A stretch of DNA of 64,000 bases from Minisyncoccota bacterium (GCA_942491275.1 CALNZI010000009.1:21938-85937); one strand, 5' to 3'. Shown: positions 1,735 to 61,550, numbered from the stretch's first letter. Translations and numbers: made by a program. The notes: generated from the letters alone by a model not told the origin.

Positions 1735-3312
1735 TTAATTTTCTCTTGGTCTGTATTGAATTGCTTCGAGGATGTGTGTTTCTGAAATAGTCCCACTTCC
1801 CTCTAGGTCAGCGATGGTTCGGGCTAATTTTATTATTCGATGATAGGCTCGTGCGGAAAGTTGCAATCTTTCGGCGCTTTGATTTAATATTTTTTTTATT
1901 TCTTCAGTTAGTGGAGCATAAATAGCTAAGTCTTTTACATTCATTTCGCTATTTGTATTTATTTTTCTTGAGCCTGCGTGGGTTGTATTAAATCTCTTAT
2001 TTTGTATTTCACGAGCTTTTTTAACTCGTTCTTTTATTGAAGATGTTTTTTCACCCTGTGATTCTGGAGTACTTAATTTTTCAAAATCAACAGAACCAAC
2101 AGTTACCCAAATATCAATTCGATCAATAATTGGCCCCGATAATTTTCTTTTATAGCGATCCAAGTCGTGAGCTTTGCAGATACATTGTTTTTGTTTGTTT
2201 CCTTTATTTCCGCAAGGGCAAGGATTCATGGCTGCAATTAATATAAAATTTGAAGGGAAAATTGCTGAACCTCGGGCTCGTGAAATGGATACGATATTAT
2301 CCTCTAGTGGTTGACGCAAAGACTCTATAACTCTTTTTTCAAATTCAGGGAATTCATCAAGAAACAAAACGCCTCGATGGGCTAATGTTACTTCTCCTGG
2401 CTTAGGATTGGCTCCTCCTCCGATCATTGAGACATAACTTGCCGTATGGTGAGGTGCTCGAAATGGAGATTCTGTTATTAGATTACTCTCAAGAGCTCCA
2501 ACAATGGAATGAATCCCTGTGATCTCCAGAATGTCGTCTTTATTTAATTCCGGCAAGATATGAGAAAAAACTCGAGCCAACATAGTCTTACCTGTTCCAG
2601 GAGGGCCAGACATGGCGACATTATGTCCTCCTGCTGCGGCAATTTCTAAACCCCTTTTAGCAGCCTCTTGCCCTCTAATATCTGAAAAATCTATATTATT
2701 AATTTTTTCTTCATAGGTGATTTCAGTTTTTGGATGAGGAGAAAGTTTTGGTTTTTCTCTTTCAATTAATTCTCCCTTTTTGTTCTTTTTGGGAATATAA
2801 ATATGGTCAATAACTTCTTTAAGATTTTTTACCCCATAGATTGTAATATCATCAACAAGGCTGGCTTCTTCTGCATTTTGAATTGGAAGAAAAACTTCTT
2901 TATAACCCAGACGTTTAGCTTCTTGAGTTAAAGGAAGAGCCCCTTTGATTGGCTGCAATTCTCCATTAAGAGATAATTCTCCAAGGAAAATTCTTTTTTC
3001 TGGATTAAAATCAATTTCTTCAGCTGATAGGAGATAGGCTAGAGCAATGGCCAAGTCGAAATAGGGGCCTTCTTTTTTAAGATCGGCAGGAGAAAGAGAA
3101 ATAACTATTTTTTGATTTTGATTTTTAGGAGAAGCGTAGCCGGAATTTTTTAAAGCAGAGCTCATTCTATCTTTTGATTCATCGACGGCTTTATCCGGAA
3201 GTCCAACTAGAGTAAAAGCATGTAAGGTATTTTTTGTAATGTCTACTTCGACAGTCACGATTTTCCCTTTTAAGAGATGCGTTTGTGCTGAGTATATTCG
3301 CGCAAATGACAT
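1735..3312 (-). CDS. comM: YifB/ComM-family Mg-chelatase-like AAA+ ATPase
   Basis: Lon-protease-like N-terminal domain, Walker A GPPGTGKT, Walker B VLFLDEFPEF, and a C-terminal YHRIIKLARTIADLEG motif. Confidence 0.9.
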   Translation of the reverse strand: MSFARIYSAQTHLLKGKIVTVEVDITKNTLHAFTLVGLPDKAVDESKDRMSSALKNSGYASPKNQNQKIVISLSPADLKKEGPYFDLAIALAYLLSAEEIDFNPEKRIFLGELSLNGELQPIKGALPLTQEAKRLGYKEVFLPIQNAEEASLVDDITIYGVKNLKEVIDHIYIPKKNKKGELIEREKPKLSPHPKTEITYEEKINNIDFSDIRGQEAAKRGLEIAAAGGHNVAMSGPPGTGKTMLARVFSHILPELNKDDILEITGIHSIVGALESNLITESPFRAPHHTASYVSMIGGGANPKPGEVTLAHRGVLFLDEFPEFEKRVIESLRQPLEDNIVSISRARGSAIFPSNFILIAAMNPCPCGNKGNKQKQCICKAHDLDRYKRKLSGPIIDRIDIWVTVGSVDFEKLSTPESQGEKTSSIKERVKKAREIQNKRFNTTHAGSRKINTNSEMNVKDLAIYAPLTEEIKKILNQSAERLQLSARAYHRIIKLARTIADLEGSGTISETHILEAIQYRPREN

Positions 3313-3382
3313 TGGTTAATTATATATTAAAAAATAAACAAAAGAAATAAAAATATACTTAATAAAAAAATTTTCACCCTCC

Positions 3383-8147: not shown

Positions 8148-8200
8148 ACTTATATATTACCATAATTTTTAAATATATAATTTAGATGTATAATACCTAA
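8148..8200. promoter_or_regulatory. Back-to-back divergent promoters, both apparently giving leaderless mRNAs
   Basis: Minus strand: TGgTAATAT (comp 8154-8162), then 6 nt to the ATG at comp(8145-8147). Plus strand: TATAAT at 8189-8194, then 6 nt to the ATG at 8201. Neither has an SD. Confidence 0.55.
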
Positions 8201-10036
8201 ATGTGTGGAATTATTGGATACATTGGAAAGAGAGAAGCTTTACCAATTATAATTAAAGGACTTCAGCGATTAGAGTATCGTGGCTATGATTCAGCTGGGG
8301 TGGCTCTTCTGGATGAACAAATGAATGTTTTTAAAAAAAGGGGAAAAGTTGAAGAACTTATAAAATTTACAAAAAATAATCCTCCGAAGGGAACCATCGG
8401 TATAGGTCATACTCGTTGGGCAACTCACGGAGAACCCTCAGATAGAAATGCTCACCCCCATCTTTCGGAGTCTGGGTCTCTTGCCATTATCCATAATGGA
8501 ATTATTGAAAATTATATTGTGTTAAAAAAAGCCCTAGAAAAAGAAGAACAAAAATTTATTAGTGAAACAGACACAGAGGTGCTTGCTCATCTTATTGAAA
8601 CCATAAAAGAAAAAGATAATTTAACAACAGAAGAAGCTGTGAGAGGGGCCCTCTCAAGAGTGATTGGAGCCTACGCCATAGTGGTTCTTGATGAGAAAGA
8701 CCCAGATACTTTAATAGTAGCACGGAAAGGAAGCCCTCTTGTTGTTGGGATTGGGAAACAAGAATTTTTTATTGCATCAGATGCTTCCCCTATTATTGAA
8801 TATACAAAAAGTGTTATTTATCTTGAAGAGGGGCAAATGGCGGTAATTAAACGTACTGGTGAATTCTTATTAAAAACTATTGATGGGGCGACGGCGACTC
8901 CTTTTATAGAAGAACTTACAATCGAAGCAGAGGCACTTGAAAAAGAAGGTTACGATCATTACATGCAAAAAGAAATTTTTGGGCAGACTCAAACTATTAA
9001 AGATGCTCTCCGAGGTCATATTCTTTCCGACAATAGCGTTCATCTTCGTGGGATGGAAGAAATGATGGAAGGTTTCACAAAAGCAAAAAGAATAATTATT
9101 ACAGCTTGTGGAACTTCTTGGATTTCTGGTCTTGTCGGTGAATATTTGATAGAACAATTGGCTCGTATTCCAGTGGAAGTGGAATATGCATCAGAATTTA
9201 GATATCGAAATCCAATTTTAAACAAAGATGATATAGTTATTGCAATTTCTCAATCAGGAGAGACGGCAGATACTTTGGCTGCAATAAATTTAGCTAAAAA
9301 ATCAGGAGCACTTATCTATGGAATCTCTAATGTTGTTGGATCGTCCATTTCTCGGCTATCAGATTCTGGCTCCTATATACATGTTGGTCCAGAGATTGGA
9401 GTTGCTTCCACTAAAGCCTTTACAGGACAAGTGGCGATACTATCTCTTATGGCTCTTCTTTTAGCAAAAAGAGAGGGAACGCTTTCTGAAGATAGATATA
9501 AAGAGCTGGTGGATTCTTTGGATTCAATAGCTAGTCATGTAGGGAAAATATTAAAAGAAGAAAGTAAAATTATAAAAATTGCAGAAATTTTAAAAAATAA
9601 AAATAATGCCTTATTTCTTGGAAGAGGAATTTTATTCCCCGTTGCTTTAGAGGGAGCTTTAAAATTGAAAGAAATTTCATATATTCATGCTGAGGGATAT
9701 CCGGCTGCTGAAATGAAGCACGGGCCCATTGCATTGGTTGAAAAAGATTTTCCAGTTATTGTGGTTGCCACTAACAATGAAATGATTGAGAAAGTGATTT
9801 CTAATGTTCAAGAAGTTAAAGCCAGAGGAGCTTTGACCATTGGAATTATTCGTGAAGGAAATGAAGAGATTAAGAAAAATTTTGATTATACAGTTGAGAT
9901 TCCAAATGTACCAGATGAATGGATGCCAATTCTTTCAGTTATACCTTTGCAATTATTGGCATATCATACAGCCGTTATCCGTGAGTTGGATGTTGATAAG
10001 CCTCGGAACTTAGCTAAGAGTGTAACGGTAGAGTAA
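8201..10036 (+). CDS. glmS: Glutamine--fructose-6-phosphate aminotransferase
   Basis: N-terminal MCGIIGY nucleophile, two SIS domains, C-terminal KSVTVE. Confidence 0.97.
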   Translation: MCGIIGYIGKREALPIIIKGLQRLEYRGYDSAGVALLDEQMNVFKKRGKVEELIKFTKNNPPKGTIGIGHTRWATHGEPSDRNAHPHLSESGSLAIIHNGIIENYIVLKKALEKEEQKFISETDTEVLAHLIETIKEKDNLTTEEAVRGALSRVIGAYAIVVLDEKDPDTLIVARKGSPLVVGIGKQEFFIASDASPIIEYTKSVIYLEEGQMAVIKRTGEFLLKTIDGATATPFIEELTIEAEALEKEGYDHYMQKEIFGQTQTIKDALRGHILSDNSVHLRGMEEMMEGFTKAKRIIITACGTSWISGLVGEYLIEQLARIPVEVEYASEFRYRNPILNKDDIVIAISQSGETADTLAAINLAKKSGALIYGISNVVGSSISRLSDSGSYIHVGPEIGVASTKAFTGQVAILSLMALLLAKREGTLSEDRYKELVDSLDSIASHVGKILKEESKIIKIAEILKNKNNALFLGRGILFPVALEGALKLKEISYIHAEGYPAAEMKHGPIALVEKDFPVIVVATNNEMIEKVISNVQEVKARGALTIGIIREGNEEIKKNFDYTVEIPNVPDEWMPILSVIPLQLLAYHTAVIRELDVDKPRNLAKSVTVE

Positions 10037-16226: not shown

Positions 16227-16298
16227 TGCACCTAGAGGGATTCGAACCCCCAATAACGGTTCCGAAGACCGTCGTGATATCCATTTCACCATAGGTGC
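16227..16298 (-). tRNA. tRNA-Arg (anticodon UCG), CCA not encoded
   Basis: Hand-folded cloverleaf: GCACCTA/TAGGTGC acceptor, anticodon loop CTTCGGA, T arm GGGGG-TTCGAAT-CCCTC. 72 nt. Confidence 0.85.
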
Positions 16299-16492: not shown

Positions 16493-16563
16493 GCGGAATT
16501 GGTTTAGTGGTAGAACACGTCCTTGCCAAGGATGAGACAGGGGTTCGATTCCCCTATTCCGCA
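16493..16563 (+). tRNA. tRNA-Gly (anticodon GCC), CCA not encoded
   Basis: GCGGAAT/ATTCCGC acceptor, anticodon loop TTGCCAA, T arm AGGGG-TTCGATT-CCCCT. 71 nt. Confidence 0.9.
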
Positions 16564-52515: not shown

Positions 52516-52582
52516 AAACTTTAAAAGCAAACAAATTCCTGAAAATTCGGGAATTTGTTTGTTTTTTTGGTATAATTTGTAA

Positions 52583-54274
52583 ATGGAATCTGAAATTAGA
52601 ATATGCCAGAATTGTAAGGGGAATTTTATAATCGAATCCGACGATTTTTCCTTTTATGAAAAAATTAAAGTTCCAGCACCTACTTTTTGTCCTGACTGCC
52701 GGAGGCAGAGAAGATTAGCTTGGCGTAATGATTTTACTTTTTACAATCGAGAGTGTGATTTGTGTGAAAGAAATATTCTTTCCCTGTATTCTTCGGATAA
52801 CCCTCAAGTAATTTATTGTAATAAATGTTGGTGGTCTGATAAGTGGGATCCAAAATCCTATGCTCAAGATTTTGATTTTTCACGACCATTTTTTGAACAG
52901 TTTAAAGAGTTCCGATTGAAGGTTCCTGCCCTAGCTTTATTTAATGATAACAATATTGGAAGTAAAAATTGTGAATATACTCAGGACTTTGCTTATGGGA
53001 AAAATTGTTACATGTGTATGGTTTCTTGGAAGATACAAGATTGTATGTATTTTACCTATGGAGCTGATGTGAAGGATTCTGTGGACTCTATGGGTATCTT
53101 TGGGACAGGAGAAGGACTCTATGAAGTTATGTATAGTGGGAAGTGTTACGGTTGTCGCAACGTGTATAAATCTTCAGATTTAATGAATTGCGCCTATTGT
53201 TTCAACTGCACTAATTGTGAAGATTGTTTCATGTCTGTTAATTTGAAGGGTAAAAAATATCATATTTTAAATAAAGAATATACAAAAGATGAATATAAAA
53301 AAATTATAGACTCCTATCAATTGAATACCTATAGTGGTTGTCAGAAAGCAGAAGCAGAATTTAATAAGTTTTTACTTACTCAACCAAGGAAACATGCCAG
53401 CATGAAAAATTGTTTAAAGTGCACGGGAGACAATTTAAGTAATAGTAAAAATTCAGAATTTAATTTTCATGCACGTCGTTCGGAGAATTCAAAATTTTTA
53501 GAAAATGGAGATACCCAAAAAGACAGTTATGATCTATGTGTAGGAGGAGAACTTTCAGAGTGTTACGAAGGATTAACTCCAGATCATTCAAATAAATCTT
53601 TATTTTGTATATATACTTGGAAGTGTATGGATATTCAATATTCAGAATCCTGTCAGGCTTCAAAGAATTGTTTCGGTTGTGTTGCTTTAAAACATACCAA
53701 TTATTCAATTTTTAATAAACAATATACAAAAGAGGAATATTTTGAATTAAAAAATAAGATTATTGAACATATGAAAAAAAACGGAGAATATGGAGAGTTC
53801 TTTCCGATAAGTAATTCTCCATTTGCCTACAATGAGTCCATGGCCATGATTTCTTTTCCTCTTACTAAAGAAGAAGCCATAAAGAAAGGATATAATTGGC
53901 AAGATAATGTTCAAGAAACAAGAGGTAAAACCACAATAAGAGAAATCCCAGATGCTATTGAGGAAGTTAAAGATTCCATTGTGGATGAAATTTTAGAATG
54001 TAATATTTGTCAAAGAAATTATAAGATTGTTGCAGATGAATTGTCTTTTTATCGTAAATGGCAGATTCCAATTCCTAGAAATTGTTTCTTTTGTCGTTTG
54101 AATAAGCGTTTTGAACTTCGTGGACCCTCGAAATTATGGAATCGGCAGTGTATGTGTGAGAAAGAAGGACACGATCATGAAAAAAGATGTGTAAATCAAT
54201 TTGAAACAACTTACTCCCCAGACAGACCAGAGATAGTTTATTGTGAAGAGTGTTATCAAAAGGAAGTATATTAA
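52583..54274 (+). CDS. Cys-rich multi-zinc-ribbon protein (563 aa), family member 2
   Basis: MESEIRICQNCKGNFIIESDDFSFYEKIKVPAPTFCPDCRRQRRL... ...YSPDRPEIVYCEECYQKEVY. TGgTATAAT plus 6 nt lies upstream. Confidence 0.75.
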   Translation: MESEIRICQNCKGNFIIESDDFSFYEKIKVPAPTFCPDCRRQRRLAWRNDFTFYNRECDLCERNILSLYSSDNPQVIYCNKCWWSDKWDPKSYAQDFDFSRPFFEQFKEFRLKVPALALFNDNNIGSKNCEYTQDFAYGKNCYMCMVSWKIQDCMYFTYGADVKDSVDSMGIFGTGEGLYEVMYSGKCYGCRNVYKSSDLMNCAYCFNCTNCEDCFMSVNLKGKKYHILNKEYTKDEYKKIIDSYQLNTYSGCQKAEAEFNKFLLTQPRKHASMKNCLKCTGDNLSNSKNSEFNFHARRSENSKFLENGDTQKDSYDLCVGGELSECYEGLTPDHSNKSLFCIYTWKCMDIQYSESCQASKNCFGCVALKHTNYSIFNKQYTKEEYFELKNKIIEHMKKNGEYGEFFPISNSPFAYNESMAMISFPLTKEEAIKKGYNWQDNVQETRGKTTIREIPDAIEEVKDSIVDEILECNICQRNYKIVADELSFYRKWQIPIPRNCFFCRLNKRFELRGPSKLWNRQCMCEKEGHDHEKRCVNQFETTYSPDRPEIVYCEECYQKEVY

Positions 54275-57085: not shown

Positions 57086-57098
57086 TATAATAATAAGA

Positions 57099-58364
57099 AT
57101 GAAAGGTCTTAATTTAGAAAATAAAAAAGTAAAATTCAAAACTCCCCAAGAAGAGCTTGAGTTTTTGCGATCTTGTCTATTAGATAAAGAAAATTTCTTA
57201 ATTGAACAAGGAGAAGGAGCGAACAGAGAGGAACTTTCTGATGAAATAATTAGTGAATACAAACAATACGAACCTAAAGAAGTTTTACATAAGAGTTTCA
57301 TCACTAAAGATGATTTTAAGGATAGTTTAGTTTTACGATTATTCCCAGAGGCTCATGATAATAAAATGGAAGAATTATTGGGAGTTCTTTTAAGTAGGGG
57401 AATCTCCAATGCTCTTTCTGTCGTGGCAAAAATAAATAACCCTCATATAGATGATGATTTCCATCGTTTTCTCGTGCAGTATTTACACACAGTTGATACA
57501 ATCCCAAGCCTTAGAAAGGGAACTCCATTACATAAATCTTTAAATTTGAAACTTTTTCAGATCGTTTTACCTAATGAATCAAATAATAAAAAAAGTTTAG
57601 GAGAATTGTTTGTAGCCATGGAACAATTTTATGCAGAAATGAATTTCATCGGAAAAGAAGGAGAAAATCAAAATTACTTTGCTTTAGAGATTGTTCTTCC
57701 TGAAGATGCCAATGATTTTATTTTTTATGCGGCCATTCCAAATCATGAAATTAATTTATTTGAAAAACAATTAAAAAAGATTCATTTGAATGCCAGACTT
57801 GTTGAAATAACTAATGATTATAATATTTTTTCAGAAAATGGTGTTGTCTTGGCCTCATATGCCACCTTACACAACCATCAGGTTTATTCAATAAAAAATA
57901 AAGATGATTTTAGCCATAATCCAATGGATTTAATTCTAAATAATATTTCTAAAATTCATAAAAAAGGAGAAGCGGCAGCAATACAATTTGTAATTTGTCC
58001 TGGAAATGATAATTTAATTAAAAATTTTCATTCTTCGCTCTCAAAATTAAAAAACAAAAAATCTTTAGACAAAGTTAGTAAAAAAATAAACAGTACTATT
58101 ATGGGAGTAAACATTAGGACAGTATCTTCTGCTGAAAATAAATTAAGGGCCAAGCATATTCTTTTTGATATTGAATCATCTTTTAATCAATTTATTGAAC
58201 CAAATGGAAATAGTTTTGTTTTTGAACACCCTAAAGATTCGGATCTATCTAATTTGATTCATGATTTTTCCTATAGAATATTCTCCGAAGATTATTCAAT
58301 GCCATTAAATCTAAGGGAGTTATCAACCATATTTCATTTCCCCTACAAAAAGCCTATAAAATAA
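57099..58364 (+). CDS. Hypothetical protein (421 aa). Resembles, from memory only, the N-terminal domain of CPR HerA/VirD4-like ATPases, but has no ATPase domain.
   Basis: Segments YFALEIVLPEDANDFIFYAAIP...LFEKQL, AAAIQFVICP and the C-terminal LNLRELSTIFHFP. No Walker motifs. Confidence 0.45.
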   Translation: MKGLNLENKKVKFKTPQEELEFLRSCLLDKENFLIEQGEGANREELSDEIISEYKQYEPKEVLHKSFITKDDFKDSLVLRLFPEAHDNKMEELLGVLLSRGISNALSVVAKINNPHIDDDFHRFLVQYLHTVDTIPSLRKGTPLHKSLNLKLFQIVLPNESNNKKSLGELFVAMEQFYAEMNFIGKEGENQNYFALEIVLPEDANDFIFYAAIPNHEINLFEKQLKKIHLNARLVEITNDYNIFSENGVVLASYATLHNHQVYSIKNKDDFSHNPMDLILNNISKIHKKGEAAAIQFVICPGNDNLIKNFHSSLSKLKNKKSLDKVSKKINSTIMGVNIRTVSSAENKLRAKHILFDIESSFNQFIEPNGNSFVFEHPKDSDLSNLIHDFSYRIFSEDYSMPLNLRELSTIFHFPYKKPIK

Positions 58365-58452: not shown

Positions 58453-59037
58453 ATGATACATCCAAAAGAAGAAAGAACATACGTGATGATTAAACCTGAT
58501 GGAGTTCGGAAAGGACTAACGGGAGAGATTATTCGTCGTTTTGAACAAAGAGATTTAAAAATAGTGGCTCTTGAAATGTTTCAGCCAACAAAGGAAATGA
58601 TTGATAATCATTATCCAAAAGAAGAAGCATGGATTACTCGTCTTGGAGAAAAAACAAAATCTACCTATGAAAAATATGGTTATGATTTAATGACTGACTT
58701 TGGAACAGATGATACTTCTAAGATTGGACCAGAAGTTCGTAAGTGGGTTGTTGATTACATGGTTAGTTCACCATTAATAAAGATGGTATTTCAAGGAGTA
58801 CACGCTATTGATGTTGTTCGAAAGATTGCCGGAGAAACAATGCCCTATAAAGCTGATATGGGTACAATCCGAGGAGATTTTTCAATAGATTCTCCTGCCT
58901 TGGCTAATAAAGAAAAGAGAGCAGTTATGAATATAATTCATTGTTCAGAAACTCCAGAAGAGGCAGAACATGAGATTAAATATTGGTTTGGAGATGCAGT
59001 TATTCATGATTATAAAAGATTTGGTGTAGATGAATAG
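58453..59037 (+). CDS. ndk: Nucleoside diphosphate kinase (with a ~40-aa insertion)
   Basis: ERTYVMIKPDGV, RGDF, and active-site His in NIIHCSE. Confidence 0.8.
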   Translation: MIHPKEERTYVMIKPDGVRKGLTGEIIRRFEQRDLKIVALEMFQPTKEMIDNHYPKEEAWITRLGEKTKSTYEKYGYDLMTDFGTDDTSKIGPEVRKWVVDYMVSSPLIKMVFQGVHAIDVVRKIAGETMPYKADMGTIRGDFSIDSPALANKEKRAVMNIIHCSETPEEAEHEIKYWFGDAVIHDYKRFGVDE

Positions 59038-59044
59038 AAATTTT

Positions 59045-59070
59045 AAAAAATTCCCTTCGGGGGATTTTTT
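59045..59070 (+). terminator. Intrinsic terminator of ndk
   Basis: TTCCC ttcg GGGGA flanked by A6 and T6. Confidence 0.8.
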
Positions 59071-59123: not shown

Positions 59124-59151
59124 TTGCGTGTTTTATCCAGACAGGTATACT
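59124..59151 (+). promoter_or_regulatory. Candidate promoter TTGCGT-N16-TATACT for an intergenic sRNA
   Basis: Hexamers at 59124-59129 and 59146-59151. Confidence 0.4.
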
Positions 59152-59156
59152 TAAAG

Positions 59157-59343
59157 TAGGGTTATTGGAATTTATTACCTAGAACATTTTGTTAAGGGAA
59201 CATAAGTTTTAATATAGTGCTGTAAACATTATTAAAGTTAACAAATCTGTATTATCCTTTCATCCCACCTAGCTTGACGCTATGGTAATACCTCTCCGAT
59301 AGTCCTAATAAAAAATTCTTCATTTTGTTGAAGGATTTTTTTT
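59157..59343 (+). ncRNA. Candidate ~185-nt sRNA (promoter to intrinsic terminator, long-range closing helix), class unknown
   Basis: 5' AGTAGGGTTATTGG (59155-59168) pairs with CCGATAGTCCTAAT (59296-59309) at 13 of 14 positions including G.U. Further nested helices: TATTACC/GGTAATA and GTTAAG/CTTGAC. Terminator TTCTTCA/TGAAGGA plus T8 at 59316-59343. Confidence 0.4.
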
Positions 59344-59356
59344 GTTATAACTTAGT

Positions 59357-59475
59357 AAAAGAGAAATTAAATAGCTTTCTTTAAAATGCACACATAATTT
59401 TCTGCTGAAAATTTGCTCTACTCGGCTCGCCAGCCTCCGTAAGGCATTTTTCAGAAACTATTTAATTTCTCTTTT
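59357..59475 (+). repeat. Perfect 18-bp inverted repeat enclosing an 83-nt core with a GC-rich centre
   Basis: AAAAGAGAAATTAAATAG (59357-59374) and CTATTTAATTTCTCTTTT (59458-59475). The core contains CTCGGCTCGCCAGCCTCCGTAAGGC. Confidence 0.6.
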
Positions 59476-59502
59476 GGCATTTATAGGTTATAATAGAAAT
59501 AT

Positions 59503-60879
59503 ATGGCTGGAAATAAAAATTTAAAAGTTACATTTTGCTCTGGTGCAGGGACTGTCACAGGGGCTAATTTTTTAATAGAAGGAGAAGGAAAGAAATTTTT
59601 AGTTGATTGCGGTTTAATTCAGGGAGAAAAGTTTGTGGATGATTTAAATTGGAAGAAATTTCCATATGATGCAAGTCAAATAGACATACTCTTTATTACT
59701 CACGCACATATTGATCATATTGGACGTATTCCTAAGTTAATTAGTGAAGGTTTTAAGGGGAAAATAATTTCTACCATTCCAACTAAGGAAATTACTGAAA
59801 TTATGTTAGCTGACACAGCTCACCTGTTGTCACGAGACAAGGAAAATCATCTTGATAGAATATATACAGAAGGGAATAATAAAAAAATTATGAGTTTGTG
59901 GGAAACATTGGAATATGGTCAAAAATTTGTAGTTGATGATCTTTTCCAATTTTCATATAAAAATGCAGGGCATATTCTTGGTTCAGGAATGCTGGAAATT
60001 GTTTATAATGGTAAAAAAATTGTTTTTACCGGAGATCTTGGTAATTCTCCTTCTCCTTTGTTGCCCGATAATGATTCTCTTGAGAATGTGAATTATTTAT
60101 TTATGGAATCAGTTTATGGAGATAGAAATCATGAAAATAGGGAAGAAAGAAAAAATAAATTAAAGAAAGTTATTAAAGACAACCACGACAGAAAGGGAAC
60201 TCTAATGATCCCAACTTTTTCTTTAGAACGTACCCAGGAATTACTATATGAAATAGATTCGTTGGTTGAAAGCAGGCAGATTCCTCCCATGCCGATCTTT
60301 TTAGATTCTCCTCTAGCTATAAGGTTAACAAATGTTTATTATAAGTATAGTAAATATTTTAATAAAAAAGCCCAACATATTATTAAGACGGGGAAAGATA
60401 ATGATTTGTTTGATTTTCCTGGACTTAAAAAAACTATGGAAACAGAAGAATCCAAGGGTATCTTAAGAGTTCCAGATCCTAAAATCGTTATTGCTGGAAG
60501 TGGGATGTCTAATGGTGGACGAATTATTCATCATGAAAAAAATTATTTACCACATAAAAAAAATACACTATTGCTAACAGGTTATCAGTCAATGGGAACT
60601 CTTGGGCGTTCCATTAAAGATGGAATAAAGAAAGTTACTATTTTGCATGAATCAGTTAACATTCGGGCTCAGATTGCAACAATTTCTGGTTATTCAAGTC
60701 ACAAAGATTCAGATCACTTAGTTGAATTCGTTGAAAACACAGCACCAACATTGAAAAAAGTTTTTCTTTTGATGGGTGAACCGAAATCAGCTATGTTTTT
60801 GTCTCAGAAATTAAGAGATAATTTAAGTGTTGATACTTATGTTCCCGAAGCAAATGAACAAATTATTCTAAAGTGCTAA
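59503..60879 (+). CDS. MBL-fold beta-CASP ribonuclease-like hydrolase
   Basis: HxHxDH motif (FITHAHIDHIGRIP). ~458 aa with a beta-CASP/RMMBL-like C-terminal half (SGYSSHKDSDHL). Confidence 0.78.
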   Translation: MAGNKNLKVTFCSGAGTVTGANFLIEGEGKKFLVDCGLIQGEKFVDDLNWKKFPYDASQIDILFITHAHIDHIGRIPKLISEGFKGKIISTIPTKEITEIMLADTAHLLSRDKENHLDRIYTEGNNKKIMSLWETLEYGQKFVVDDLFQFSYKNAGHILGSGMLEIVYNGKKIVFTGDLGNSPSPLLPDNDSLENVNYLFMESVYGDRNHENREERKNKLKKVIKDNHDRKGTLMIPTFSLERTQELLYEIDSLVESRQIPPMPIFLDSPLAIRLTNVYYKYSKYFNKKAQHIIKTGKDNDLFDFPGLKKTMETEESKGILRVPDPKIVIAGSGMSNGGRIIHHEKNYLPHKKNTLLLTGYQSMGTLGRSIKDGIKKVTILHESVNIRAQIATISGYSSHKDSDHLVEFVENTAPTLKKVFLLMGEPKSAMFLSQKLRDNLSVDTYVPEANEQIILKC

Positions 60880-60929: not shown

Positions 60930-61550
60930 ATGAAAAATAATAAAAAAACTGAATATCTTTGTTACAACGGACCCATGGGAGATAATGGGAAGCACAATCA
61001 TTTAAAATTAAAAATTGGTGTATGTGGAGCCGCTGAAACGAGCATGTGTGGAGTTAATGCCTACGATCAAGGAAAAGAATTGGGTCGCGAGATAGTAAAG
61101 CAGGGAGGGATTTTGGTTTCTGGAGCAACCACTGGTTTCCCTATGTGGAGTGCCATGGGAGCCAAGGAAGAGAAAGGAGTGAGTATTGGAATATCTCCTG
61201 CTTCCAATGAGAAGGAACATGTTAATACCTACCGATTACCGCTGGATTATATGGACTTAATTATTTATACAGGATTTGGTTTTCCAGGAAGAGATTTATT
61301 GTTTACTAGAAGTTGTGACGCAGTAATTATAGGCTGTGGAAGAATTGGGACAATTCATGAATTTACTGTTGCCTTTGAAGATCATAAACCCATTGGAATT
61401 TTAGAGGGAGCATGGAAAACAGATGAAACCATTAAAACCATCATCGAGAGAGCTAATCGCCCCAATGATCAAATTATTTTTGATAAAGATATAAAAAGTT
61501 TGGTCAAAAAAGTTATTGCTTTAGTTGAGAAAAATAAAAGTAAAGAATAA
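60930..61550 (+). CDS. TIGR00725/LOG-like Rossmann-fold protein
   Basis: IGVCGAAE...GGILVSGATTG...PGRDLLFTRSCDAVIIGCGRIGTIHEF. Confidence 0.6.
   Translation: MKNNKKTEYLCYNGPMGDNGKHNHLKLKIGVCGAAETSMCGVNAYDQGKELGREIVKQGGILVSGATTGFPMWSAMGAKEEKGVSIGISPASNEKEHVNTYRLPLDYMDLIIYTGFGFPGRDLLFTRSCDAVIIGCGRIGTIHEFTVAFEDHKPIGILEGAWKTDETIKTIIERANRPNDQIIFDKDIKSLVKKVIALVEKNKSKE

Follow-up and report, generated by a model that had tools for sequence, protein, structure and literature searches.

What is encoded in the spacer of 465 bp, read directly from the sequence, that separates ndk (58453-59037) from the gene of a beta-CASP metallo-beta-lactamase (59503-60879)? The question arises in a genome that is Candidatus Nomurabacteria (Paceibacteria, CPR) and whose Ndk shares 80-89% identity with proteins named Candidatus Nomurabacteria, Paceibacterota or Parcubacteria; the window referred to below is the whole stretch of DNA that was analysed, 64,000 nucleotides long. 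A sequence-only reading had proposed that the spacer holds a stand-alone small RNA, about 185 nt in length, that is transcribed from a promoter of its own, is closed by a long-range helix and ends in an intrinsic terminator, and that its shape recalls 6S RNA. 6S RNA is a regulator that binds RNA polymerase by mimicking an open promoter, and it has been described from nearly all bacteria. In the literature searched, no link was found between 6S RNA and CPR, Patescibacteria or Parcubacteria, which does not prove that such reports are absent. As set out below, comparative sequence evidence makes it likely that the RNA of the window is a divergent, partly miniaturised 6S RNA (SsrS-type) of Paceibacteria.

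When considered from its ends, the transcription unit is delimited by the following features:

59045-59070, plus strand: intrinsic terminator of ndk (scan match at 59051-59064, then a T-run), separating ndk from the RNA gene
59124-59129, plus strand: -35 element TTGCGT, its TTG invariant in 40 aligned homologues
59146-59151, plus strand: -10 element TATACT, 16 nt from the -35 element, its T, A and final T invariant in alignment A1
59158-59343, plus strand: predicted primary transcript of about 186 nt, comprising the 6S-like RNA and the terminator hairpin, with a 5' end predicted from the -10 element plus 7 nt
59315-59343, plus strand: intrinsic terminator with an 8-bp stem (59315-59322/59329-59336), a 6-nt loop and T8 (59336-59343), from the fold and from homologues

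The promoter of the sequence-only reading, TTGCGT-N16-TATACT at 59124-59151, is correctly placed, with TTG and TA...T invariant in 40 genomes, and the pattern TTG-N19/20-TAnnnT is found upstream in 46 of the 55 homologues. The proposed terminator with its T8 is likewise confirmed, a hairpin followed by a T-run being kept downstream in 51 of the 55; these stems comprise 49 distinct sequences, the pattern expected if only the shape of a terminator is selected. Neither the promoter (59124-59151) nor the terminator (59315-59343) is on the list of a simple promoter/terminator scan, because the -35 element fits only three of the six consensus bases and the terminator stem contains only two G-C pairs, which places both below the thresholds. 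At the level of sequence, comparative data validate both the predicted -35/-10 promoter and the predicted terminator of the RNA gene. As for the next gene, in 44 of 55 loci a TATAAT-like box precedes the ATG by 3-11 nt, in most cases by exactly 6, and a -10 box just before the ATG also marks other gene starts in the window. A box so close to the ATG implies that the next gene has its own, apparently leaderless, promoter and that the RNA is not its 5' UTR. Set between the terminator of ndk and the promoter of the next gene, the RNA gene forms a transcription unit of its own, as had been proposed, with a conserved promoter, a conserved terminator and a predicted transcript of about 186 nt. Across the covariance-model matches, the transcript with its terminator is predicted to measure about 160-186 nt and the core 126-167 nt, both between predicted ends, compared with about 160-200 nt for 6S RNAs; at one locus (L073), the closing stem and the U-run after it may themselves serve as terminator. 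That this is a real, independently transcribed gene for a structured RNA can be regarded as practically certain.

The relatives of the RNA were sought through its neighbour. A scan for ndk in species-representative genomes yielded 77 loci, almost all of them from Paceibacteria MAGs, and 40 of these gave a blastn match to the spacer element, downstream of ndk. The apical part alone divides the homologues into two size classes, and a covariance model built from 30 short-class sequences gave plus-strand matches in at least 61 of the 77 related loci, including loci labelled Vogelbacteria, Zambryskiibacteriota, Colwellbacteria, Wolfebacteria and UBA2103; a search with the filters off added three further divergent copies, from GC-richer genomes. 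Plus-strand scores range from 17 to 160 bits, with a minus-strand echo of at most 53 bits, and in the 64-kb window there is exactly one plus-strand match (59153-59313, 75.7 bits, E = 3.6e-17). The RNA is conserved across Paceibacteria.

Two checks suggested along with the sequence-only reading, folding energy against shuffled sequence and covariation in relatives, both speak for a structured RNA. The region 59152-59345 folds on the plus strand with a minimum free energy (MFE) of -49.8 kcal/mol (z = -4.83), none of 200 shuffles being as good, and its minus strand reaches z = -2.59. In a MAFFT alignment, 97.5% of the cells pair and 14 pairs show double changes, a result reached by none of 500 shuffles, whereas slid controls pair in only 33-44%. 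When 57 distinct plus-strand sequences were aligned to the model, an alignment fitted to the model and so biased towards the structure, 93.8% of the cells pair and 33 of 40 pairs carry compensatory changes, compared with 12-16 pairs in the slid controls. Many of the exchanges are of the type G-C to G-U and U-A to U-G and affect the 3' strand only, which identifies the plus strand as the transcribed one.

The structural elements behind these figures are, from 5' to 3':

59157-59169, plus strand: 5' strand of the outer closing stem P1, UAGGGUUAUUGGA, pairing in the MFE fold with 59295-59307, G-U pairs included
59173-59179, plus strand: 5' strand of the inner closing stem P2, UAUUACC, ending in the bubble-closing CC, putative equivalent of the 'downstream duplex' (MFE and consensus folds)
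59180-59195, plus strand: A/U-rich 5' strand of the central bubble, UAGAACAUUUUGUUAA, left open in the consensus folds, with UAG..C invariant
59196-59266, plus strand: apical (internal) stem-loop of 71 nt, of the long-apical class, in which GGG (59196-59198) pairs with CCC (59264-59266)
59267-59283, plus strand: 3' strand of the central bubble, A-C-C and then a hairpin UAGC (59270-73)/GCUA (59279-82), putative equivalent of the '-10-like' region
59284-59290, plus strand: 3' strand of P2, GGUAAUA, pairing with 59173-59179; in the homologue L022 it is aligned to 'GGuUCa' of RF00013, the Rfam model for 6S RNA
59295-59307, plus strand: 3' strand of P1, UCCGAUAGUCCUA (MFE, consensus fold and covariation)
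59308-59314, plus strand: A-rich linker from the closing stem to the terminator, a UAAGAAAA-like linker being conserved in alignment A1

The single extended hairpin that had been suggested holds as a rod of closing stem and apical stem, but this rod is branched: a small hairpin projects sideways from the 3' bubble strand. The coordinates and pairings given for the long-range closing helix are correct, and the helix covaries in more than 55 genomes. With P2, it forms a closing stem of 20-25 very stable base pairs, in which the pairs of P1 are kept through G-C/G-U and U-A/U-G exchanges, with compensatory changes in distant members. The nested helix TATTACC/GGTAATA is present as P2 and covaries as a block, AUUACC/GGUAAU being replaced by UGCAAC/GUUGCU in UBA2103-like members; UAG at 59180-82 is able to pair with CUA at 59280-82. 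The helix GTTAAG/CTTGAC, in contrast, turned out to be specific to the window, since the 3' segment forms a small local hairpin in the relatives. This hairpin of the 3' bubble strand measures 4-6 bp and covaries, for instance as CUAGCU/AGCUAG, CCUAAC/GUUAGG, CCUAC/GUAGG, CCUGU/ACAGG, UAGAU/AUCUA and GACU/AGUC. The RNAalifold consensus of the short class consists of P1, P2 (UUAUUACC/GGUAAUA), an unpaired A/U-rich strand (UAGAACAnUAUUUUAU) and an apical stem GGG-A-G...C-A-CCC, followed by AC, a 5-bp hairpin and, at once, the 3' strand of P2.

Around the bubble, the family is conserved in its letters as well as in its pairs. The 5' bubble strand comprises 11-21 nt in all members, and no covarying pairs are predicted in it. 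Where the apical stem begins and ends, GGG-A-G on the 5' side and C-A-CCC-AC(C/U)U on the 3' side are invariant throughout the family, and CC/GG closes the bubble on the side of the closing stem. In alignment A1, the invariant positions are G97-G99, C165-C169/T171 and the CC/GG of P2, CCCAC.U being invariant; the wider family keeps CCCAC except for one locus (L055), which has CCCGC. The GGG/CCC pairs are G-C in 55-57 of the 57 distinct sequences, and the inner apical pairs covary heavily. The apical arm measures 47-50 nt in most relatives, and the subgroup of the window has a 71-nt arm of unrelated sequence. A pseudoknot between the apical loop and CCCAC was considered and dropped, the loop motif being missing from the long-apical class.

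Can such an RNA be assigned to a known family? At the gathering threshold, no family of Rfam 15 is reached in the window or in 20 related loci; RF00013 gives no match at E <= 10 on the window RNA or on one relative (L008), and four more related loci searched at E <= 1 yield no 6S RNA. The weak Rfam matches that do appear (csRNA, PyrR, snoRNAs, miRNA, CRISPR repeat, RAGATH-17) match A/U-rich hairpins or terminators by chance. The best RF00013 result comes from L022, a Vogelbacteria-labelled homologue, with 11.6 bits and E = 1.6, compared with a gathering score of 46.4 bits; in this sequence RF00013 has the top bit score of 4227 families, and an 11-nt minus-strand snoRNA match had E = 1.4. The Rfam check suggested with the sequence-only reading thus has a divided outcome, in that the gathering score for 6S is never reached and RF00013 is nevertheless top-scoring in L022. 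For comparison, the positive control, E. coli ssrS, scores 139.8 bits with RF00013, and the covariance model of the family (R1) gives no signal on E. coli ssrS (4 bits).

More telling than the score of L022 is its register. The alignment to RF00013 covers, with high posterior probability, P2, the 5' bubble, GGGAG, the CUUG apical loop, CACCCACCU and the 3' strand of P2, and it places the 5' strand of P2 on 'uGAgCC' and the 5' bubble on 'gAaaauuuuuauaaua'. Taken alone, 11.6 bits are not significant, but the agreement of this register with an independently derived structure and with the invariant letters is persuasive. The RF00013 consensus runs ...uGAgCC gAaaauuuuuauaaua GGGagccc ... gggcaCCCACCUgg...GGuUCa, and the family reads ...UUAUUACC UAGAACAAUAUUUUAU GGGAGCC ... 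GGCACCCACCUAG...GGUAAUA. The most conserved positions of the family are GGG, CCCAC and the CC/GG closure, and no run of highly conserved letters in RF00013 is longer than CCCACCU. Moreover, GGG(a)g and CCCACCU of RF00013 occupy the same structural positions as GGG and CCCAC(C/U)U of the family, with an unpaired A on each side. Both sides of the bubble carry the sequence hallmark of 6S RNA, ...CC / GGG-A-G ... C-A-CCC-ACCU ... GG.... A rod-like fold, an open 5' bubble strand, conserved nucleotides flanking the bubble and a hairpin in the 3' bubble are all found, and the RF00013 score stays below 46.4 bits. The assignment to 6S RNA is preferred because of the topology, the invariant letters that match the RF00013 consensus, and the top score of RF00013, in register, for L022. 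The resemblance to 6S RNA noted in the sequence-only reading is upheld on the same grounds, and a 6S function would follow by analogy.

Known 6S RNAs are rods with a central bubble between closing and apical stems, and their '-10-like' region lies in the 3' bubble strand; in B. subtilis 6S-1 and the 6S RNAs of Lactobacillales, a hairpin faces the open 5' bulge (PMC8876501; PMC8414754). The architecture of this RF00013/B. subtilis 6S-1 type is shared with the family, including the closing stem, the apical stem and the hairpin opposite the 5' bubble, whose 5' strand has 11-21 nt in the family and 16-17 nt in known 6S RNAs. The closure on the apical side, GGG-a-g...c-a-CCC and then ACCU, equals the RF00013 consensus, and the short-class members have a CUUG-type apical loop as in the RF00013 alignment. 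Although E. coli 6S RNA shows no detectable overall sequence similarity to the family, the order of elements in its centroid fold is the same: in ssrS (NC_000913.3 3055983-3056165), the inner closing helix (36-41/144-149) is followed by a 17-nt open 5' strand, the apical stem (59-130), 'AC' (131-132), a hairpin (133-143) and then the 3' strand of the helix. The ACCUUG at positions 131-136 of E. coli corresponds to ACCUAG in the family, and the hairpin begins with C(C/U)U in both. The family differs from textbook 6S RNA in being very A/U-rich, in the strong conservation and covariation of the 3'-bubble hairpin, and in the intrinsic terminator hairpin outside the closing stem. A further difference concerns the apical arm, of 47-50 nt in most members as against about 75 nt in RF00013, so that a '-35-like' contact may be missing.

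If the RNA acts like its counterparts in E. coli and B. subtilis (6S-1), it would mimic an open promoter and fill the active-site cleft of the housekeeping σ-RNA polymerase holoenzyme, and this occupancy would damp transcription when nutrients are scarce. P2 and P1 would represent the downstream duplex, the apical stem the upstream duplex, and the strand with ACCU and the hairpin the non-template-like '-10' region. Once NTPs are back, the polymerase would copy the 5' bubble strand and the 5' strand of P2 into a product RNA (pRNA), whose synthesis would, by analogy, unwind P2, so that the RNA refolds and the polymerase is released. In known 6S RNAs, pRNA synthesis starts in the proximal 5' bubble (at C40 in B. 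subtilis and U44 in E. coli) and unwinds P2 (PMC8876501; PMC8414754), and the hallmarks of pRNAs are a purine start, a conserved A just upstream and GG at positions 4/5 or 5/6 (PMC8414754). In the window, synthesis is predicted to start at about 59180-59185 and to proceed towards 59166, giving 5'-GUUCUAGGUAAUAA... or 5'-AGGUAAUAAAUUCC...; as complements of 59166-59185, the predicted pRNAs are 5'-GUUCUAGGUAAUAAAUUCC or 5'-AGGUAAUAAAUUCC. From the sequence, we infer U59180, A59183 and C59185 as candidate start sites. C59185 is invariant and the next A59186 nearly so, which fits a G-initiated pRNA 5'-GUUCUAGGUAAUAA with an upstream A, whereas the alignment to RF00013 points to a start at 59183. 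A G start at C59185 would put the GG of the pRNA at positions 7/8 and a start at U59180 would put it at 2/3; unlike known pRNAs, the predicted ones have no GG at 4/5 or 5/6. As regards the refolding step, the 9-bp extended 3'-bubble hairpin of E. coli 6S RNA forms only after pRNA synthesis (PMC8876501). In folds of the family with the template masked, the 3'-bubble hairpin gains 2.0 pairs on average, which overall does not set it apart from shuffled controls (1.54 pairs); it extends to 7-8 bp in about half of the members, and the effect is clear only in UBA2103-like members, with a gain of 5-6 pairs.

An unlikely reading is that the RNA, though derived from 6S RNA, works unlike the textbook examples, either as a natural minimal 6S RNA that binds polymerase via the bubble alone or as a descendant recruited to an RNase-linked function. 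This reading is prompted by the short apical arm of most members and by the position of the RNA, almost always beside the gene for a CPSF73-like beta-CASP RNase. With respect to the arm, engineered 78-82-nt derivatives of B. subtilis 6S-1 bind σA RNA polymerase about 10-fold more weakly but remain capable of templating pRNA and of being released (Ganapathy et al. 2022, PMC8876501). The members of the family with a short apical arm resemble natural intermediates, with a bubble flanked by shortened arms, although the shortening is natural and confined to the apical arm in the family and engineered in the 6S-1 constructs. Because these derivatives still work, a short arm may, by analogy, be compatible with 6S function (PMC8876501).

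On another reading, quite improbable in our judgement, the RNA would be a structured small RNA specific to Paceibacteria that does not sequester polymerase and serves, for example, as partner, decoy or substrate of the adjacent ribonuclease, its 6S-like shape and GGG/CCCACCU motif being either convergent or kept from a 6S ancestor. The neighbourhood suggests as much: the RNA gene, an optional small membrane ORF, the beta-CASP metallo-beta-lactamase gene, which encodes the CPSF73-like ribonuclease, and SLOG are neighbours in almost all loci, and this near-constant adjacency is set off by the interval between ndk and the RNA gene, whose gene content varies. That no Rfam family exceeds its threshold and that the apical arm is short would fit as well. 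Yet the invariant letters are those of the most conserved block of RF00013, at the same structural position, and the architecture fits 6S RNA element by element; moreover, L073 has a copy of the RNA gene, between genes on the opposite strand, and no beta-CASP gene. Synteny with unrelated genes is in any case normal for 6S RNA, as illustrated by ssrS-fau in E. coli and by rarA/uspA in LAB (PMC8414754). A beta-CASP-linked function is suggested by synteny only, and synteny of this kind is also typical of genuine 6S genes.

The same neighbourhood could be read in cis, with the RNA as a riboswitch or attenuator in a 5' leader, its terminator governing how far transcription passes on into the genes for the membrane protein and the beta-CASP enzyme. 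It has the orientation of these genes and lies directly upstream of them in nearly all loci, in many of them no more than 20-80 nt separate the end of its terminator from the next ORF, and a fold resembling a three-way junction followed by a terminator gives a riboswitch-like layout; a junction-containing fold and an intrinsic terminator upstream of a conserved gene pair are indeed shared with terminator-type riboswitches and leader RNAs. Unlike in those RNAs, however, the downstream ORF has its own -10 box in the 44 of 55 loci mentioned above, in the layout of a leaderless mRNA, and the downstream content is variable: the membrane ORF is missing in the class of loci to which the window belongs, unrelated insertions of 120-180 nt separate the RNA gene from the next gene, and the neighbours in L073 are on the opposite strand. 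With an invariant core and terminator stems that differ in 49 of 51 cases, a conserved antiterminator pairing is impossible, and the long closing stem is too stable to resemble a switching P1. A regulatory leader is therefore very improbable.

Another housekeeping RNA (SRP/4.5S RNA, RNase P RNA, tmRNA, 5S rRNA or Y RNA) would also be hairpin-like, conserved, single-copy and independently transcribed, but the probability of this is negligible: in keeping with the missing SRP, RNase P and tmRNA signatures of the sequence-only reading, there is no Rfam match to the SRP, RNase P, tmRNA, 5S or Y families at E <= 10 on the window RNA or L008, the apex is the most variable part, with two unrelated classes, and lacks the GNRA/GGAA tetraloop or the AGCA symmetric-loop motif of SRP domain IV, the RNA is too small for RNase P RNA or tmRNA, its arm lengths are wrong for 5S rRNA, and there is no Ro/TROVE gene nearby that would go with a Y RNA. 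A permuted 5S rRNA, to which AGUAGGG/CCCACCU/AUGGUA had given rise, was rejected along with 5S rRNA, and a retron ncRNA, a T-box, a ykkC-like RNA and a hammerhead were ruled out by size, arm lengths, absent motifs or absent partner genes.

Returning to the 6S assignment, the most likely state of affairs is that the 6S family of Paceibacteria is a divergent one that is missed by the current Rfam 6S model. The assignment comes with testable predictions, namely the ends of the transcript, the sequence of the pRNA and an essential GGG/CCCAC motif. If it is true, the members with a core of 126-137 nt would be naturally miniaturised variants of 6S RNA, which could serve to test, in a form evolved in vivo, the in vitro result that 6S RNA can do without its long arms and '-35-like' region. 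The approximately 60 covarying sequences could seed a dedicated model for the annotation of CPR genomes. Bacteria with reduced genomes and a probably symbiotic lifestyle would then be seen to retain a regulator that sequesters RNA polymerase; the biology would be as expected, but the family would close an annotation gap in a large and poorly understood radiation.

Between the terminator of the 6S-like RNA gene (the RNA) and the beta-CASP gene lies a 119-nt element bounded by terminal inverted repeats of 21 nt each. The features in this part of the window are as follows:

57099-58364: ORF of 421 aa, upstream of ndk
59357-59475: 119-nt inverted-repeat element
59503-60879: beta-CASP metallo-beta-lactamase gene, adjoining the RNA
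60930-61550: gene for a SLOG/TIGR00725-family protein, next after the beta-CASP gene

The element is predicted to fold into a long hairpin (z = -6.2); it may represent either a MITE-like insertion or a further small RNA. It is absent from the closest relative (L012); a copy of about 77% identity is found at the same relative position in two distant genomes (L068 and L070). Its sole Rfam match, to a miRNA hairpin, was judged spurious, and across the 64-kb window the only Rfam matches at gathering score are four tRNA genes:

16227-16298 (-): tRNA gene
16493-16563 (+): tRNA gene
17376-17446 (-): tRNA gene
18347-18417 (-): tRNA gene

Other spacers downstream of the RNA contain unrelated, G+C-rich palindromic insertions, e.g. 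cctcccctccttactaaggagggg..., located as follows:

L007: 4065-4205
L074: 5185-5230
L041: 4050-4190
L003: 3470-3580

These insertions suggest that the intergenic site 3' of the RNA is a hotspot for small insertions.

Gene content around the RNA is also variable. Across the ndk-bearing loci compared (L001-L077), ndk and the RNA are separated by zero to three inserted genes (CYTH, HD-domain, P-loop kinase-like), depending on the genome. In the interval from the RNA to the beta-CASP gene, most genomes carry a membrane ORF (~125-150 aa) that fits no family with confidence; it is missing from the window's subgroup, the long-apical class of RNA homologues. The 421-aa ORF upstream of ndk, for which neither Pfam nor NCBIfam gave a match, covers just a portion of a conserved ORF that is much longer (600-800 aa) in related genomes, and the window copy may thus be truncated or split. 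Synteny of the RNA with the beta-CASP and SLOG/TIGR00725 genes holds in almost every locus. The beta-CASP protein appears to be a CPSF73-like ribonuclease, its best NCBIfam matches being Cas14 of type VII CRISPR (380 bits) and archaeal aCPSF1 (295 bits), both scores far under the cut-off.

At many genes, a TATAAT box stands 5-8 nt upstream of the ATG. In the window this layout occurs nine times against 3.9 expected, with at least six cases at ORF starts:

59489-59505: start of the gene after the RNA
3310-3324 (-), 8189-8203, 23998-24012 (-), 52571-52585, 57086-57101: further sites

Of 55 loci, 44 have the same layout at the gene downstream of the RNA. These observations suggest that these Paceibacteria commonly use leaderless mRNAs.
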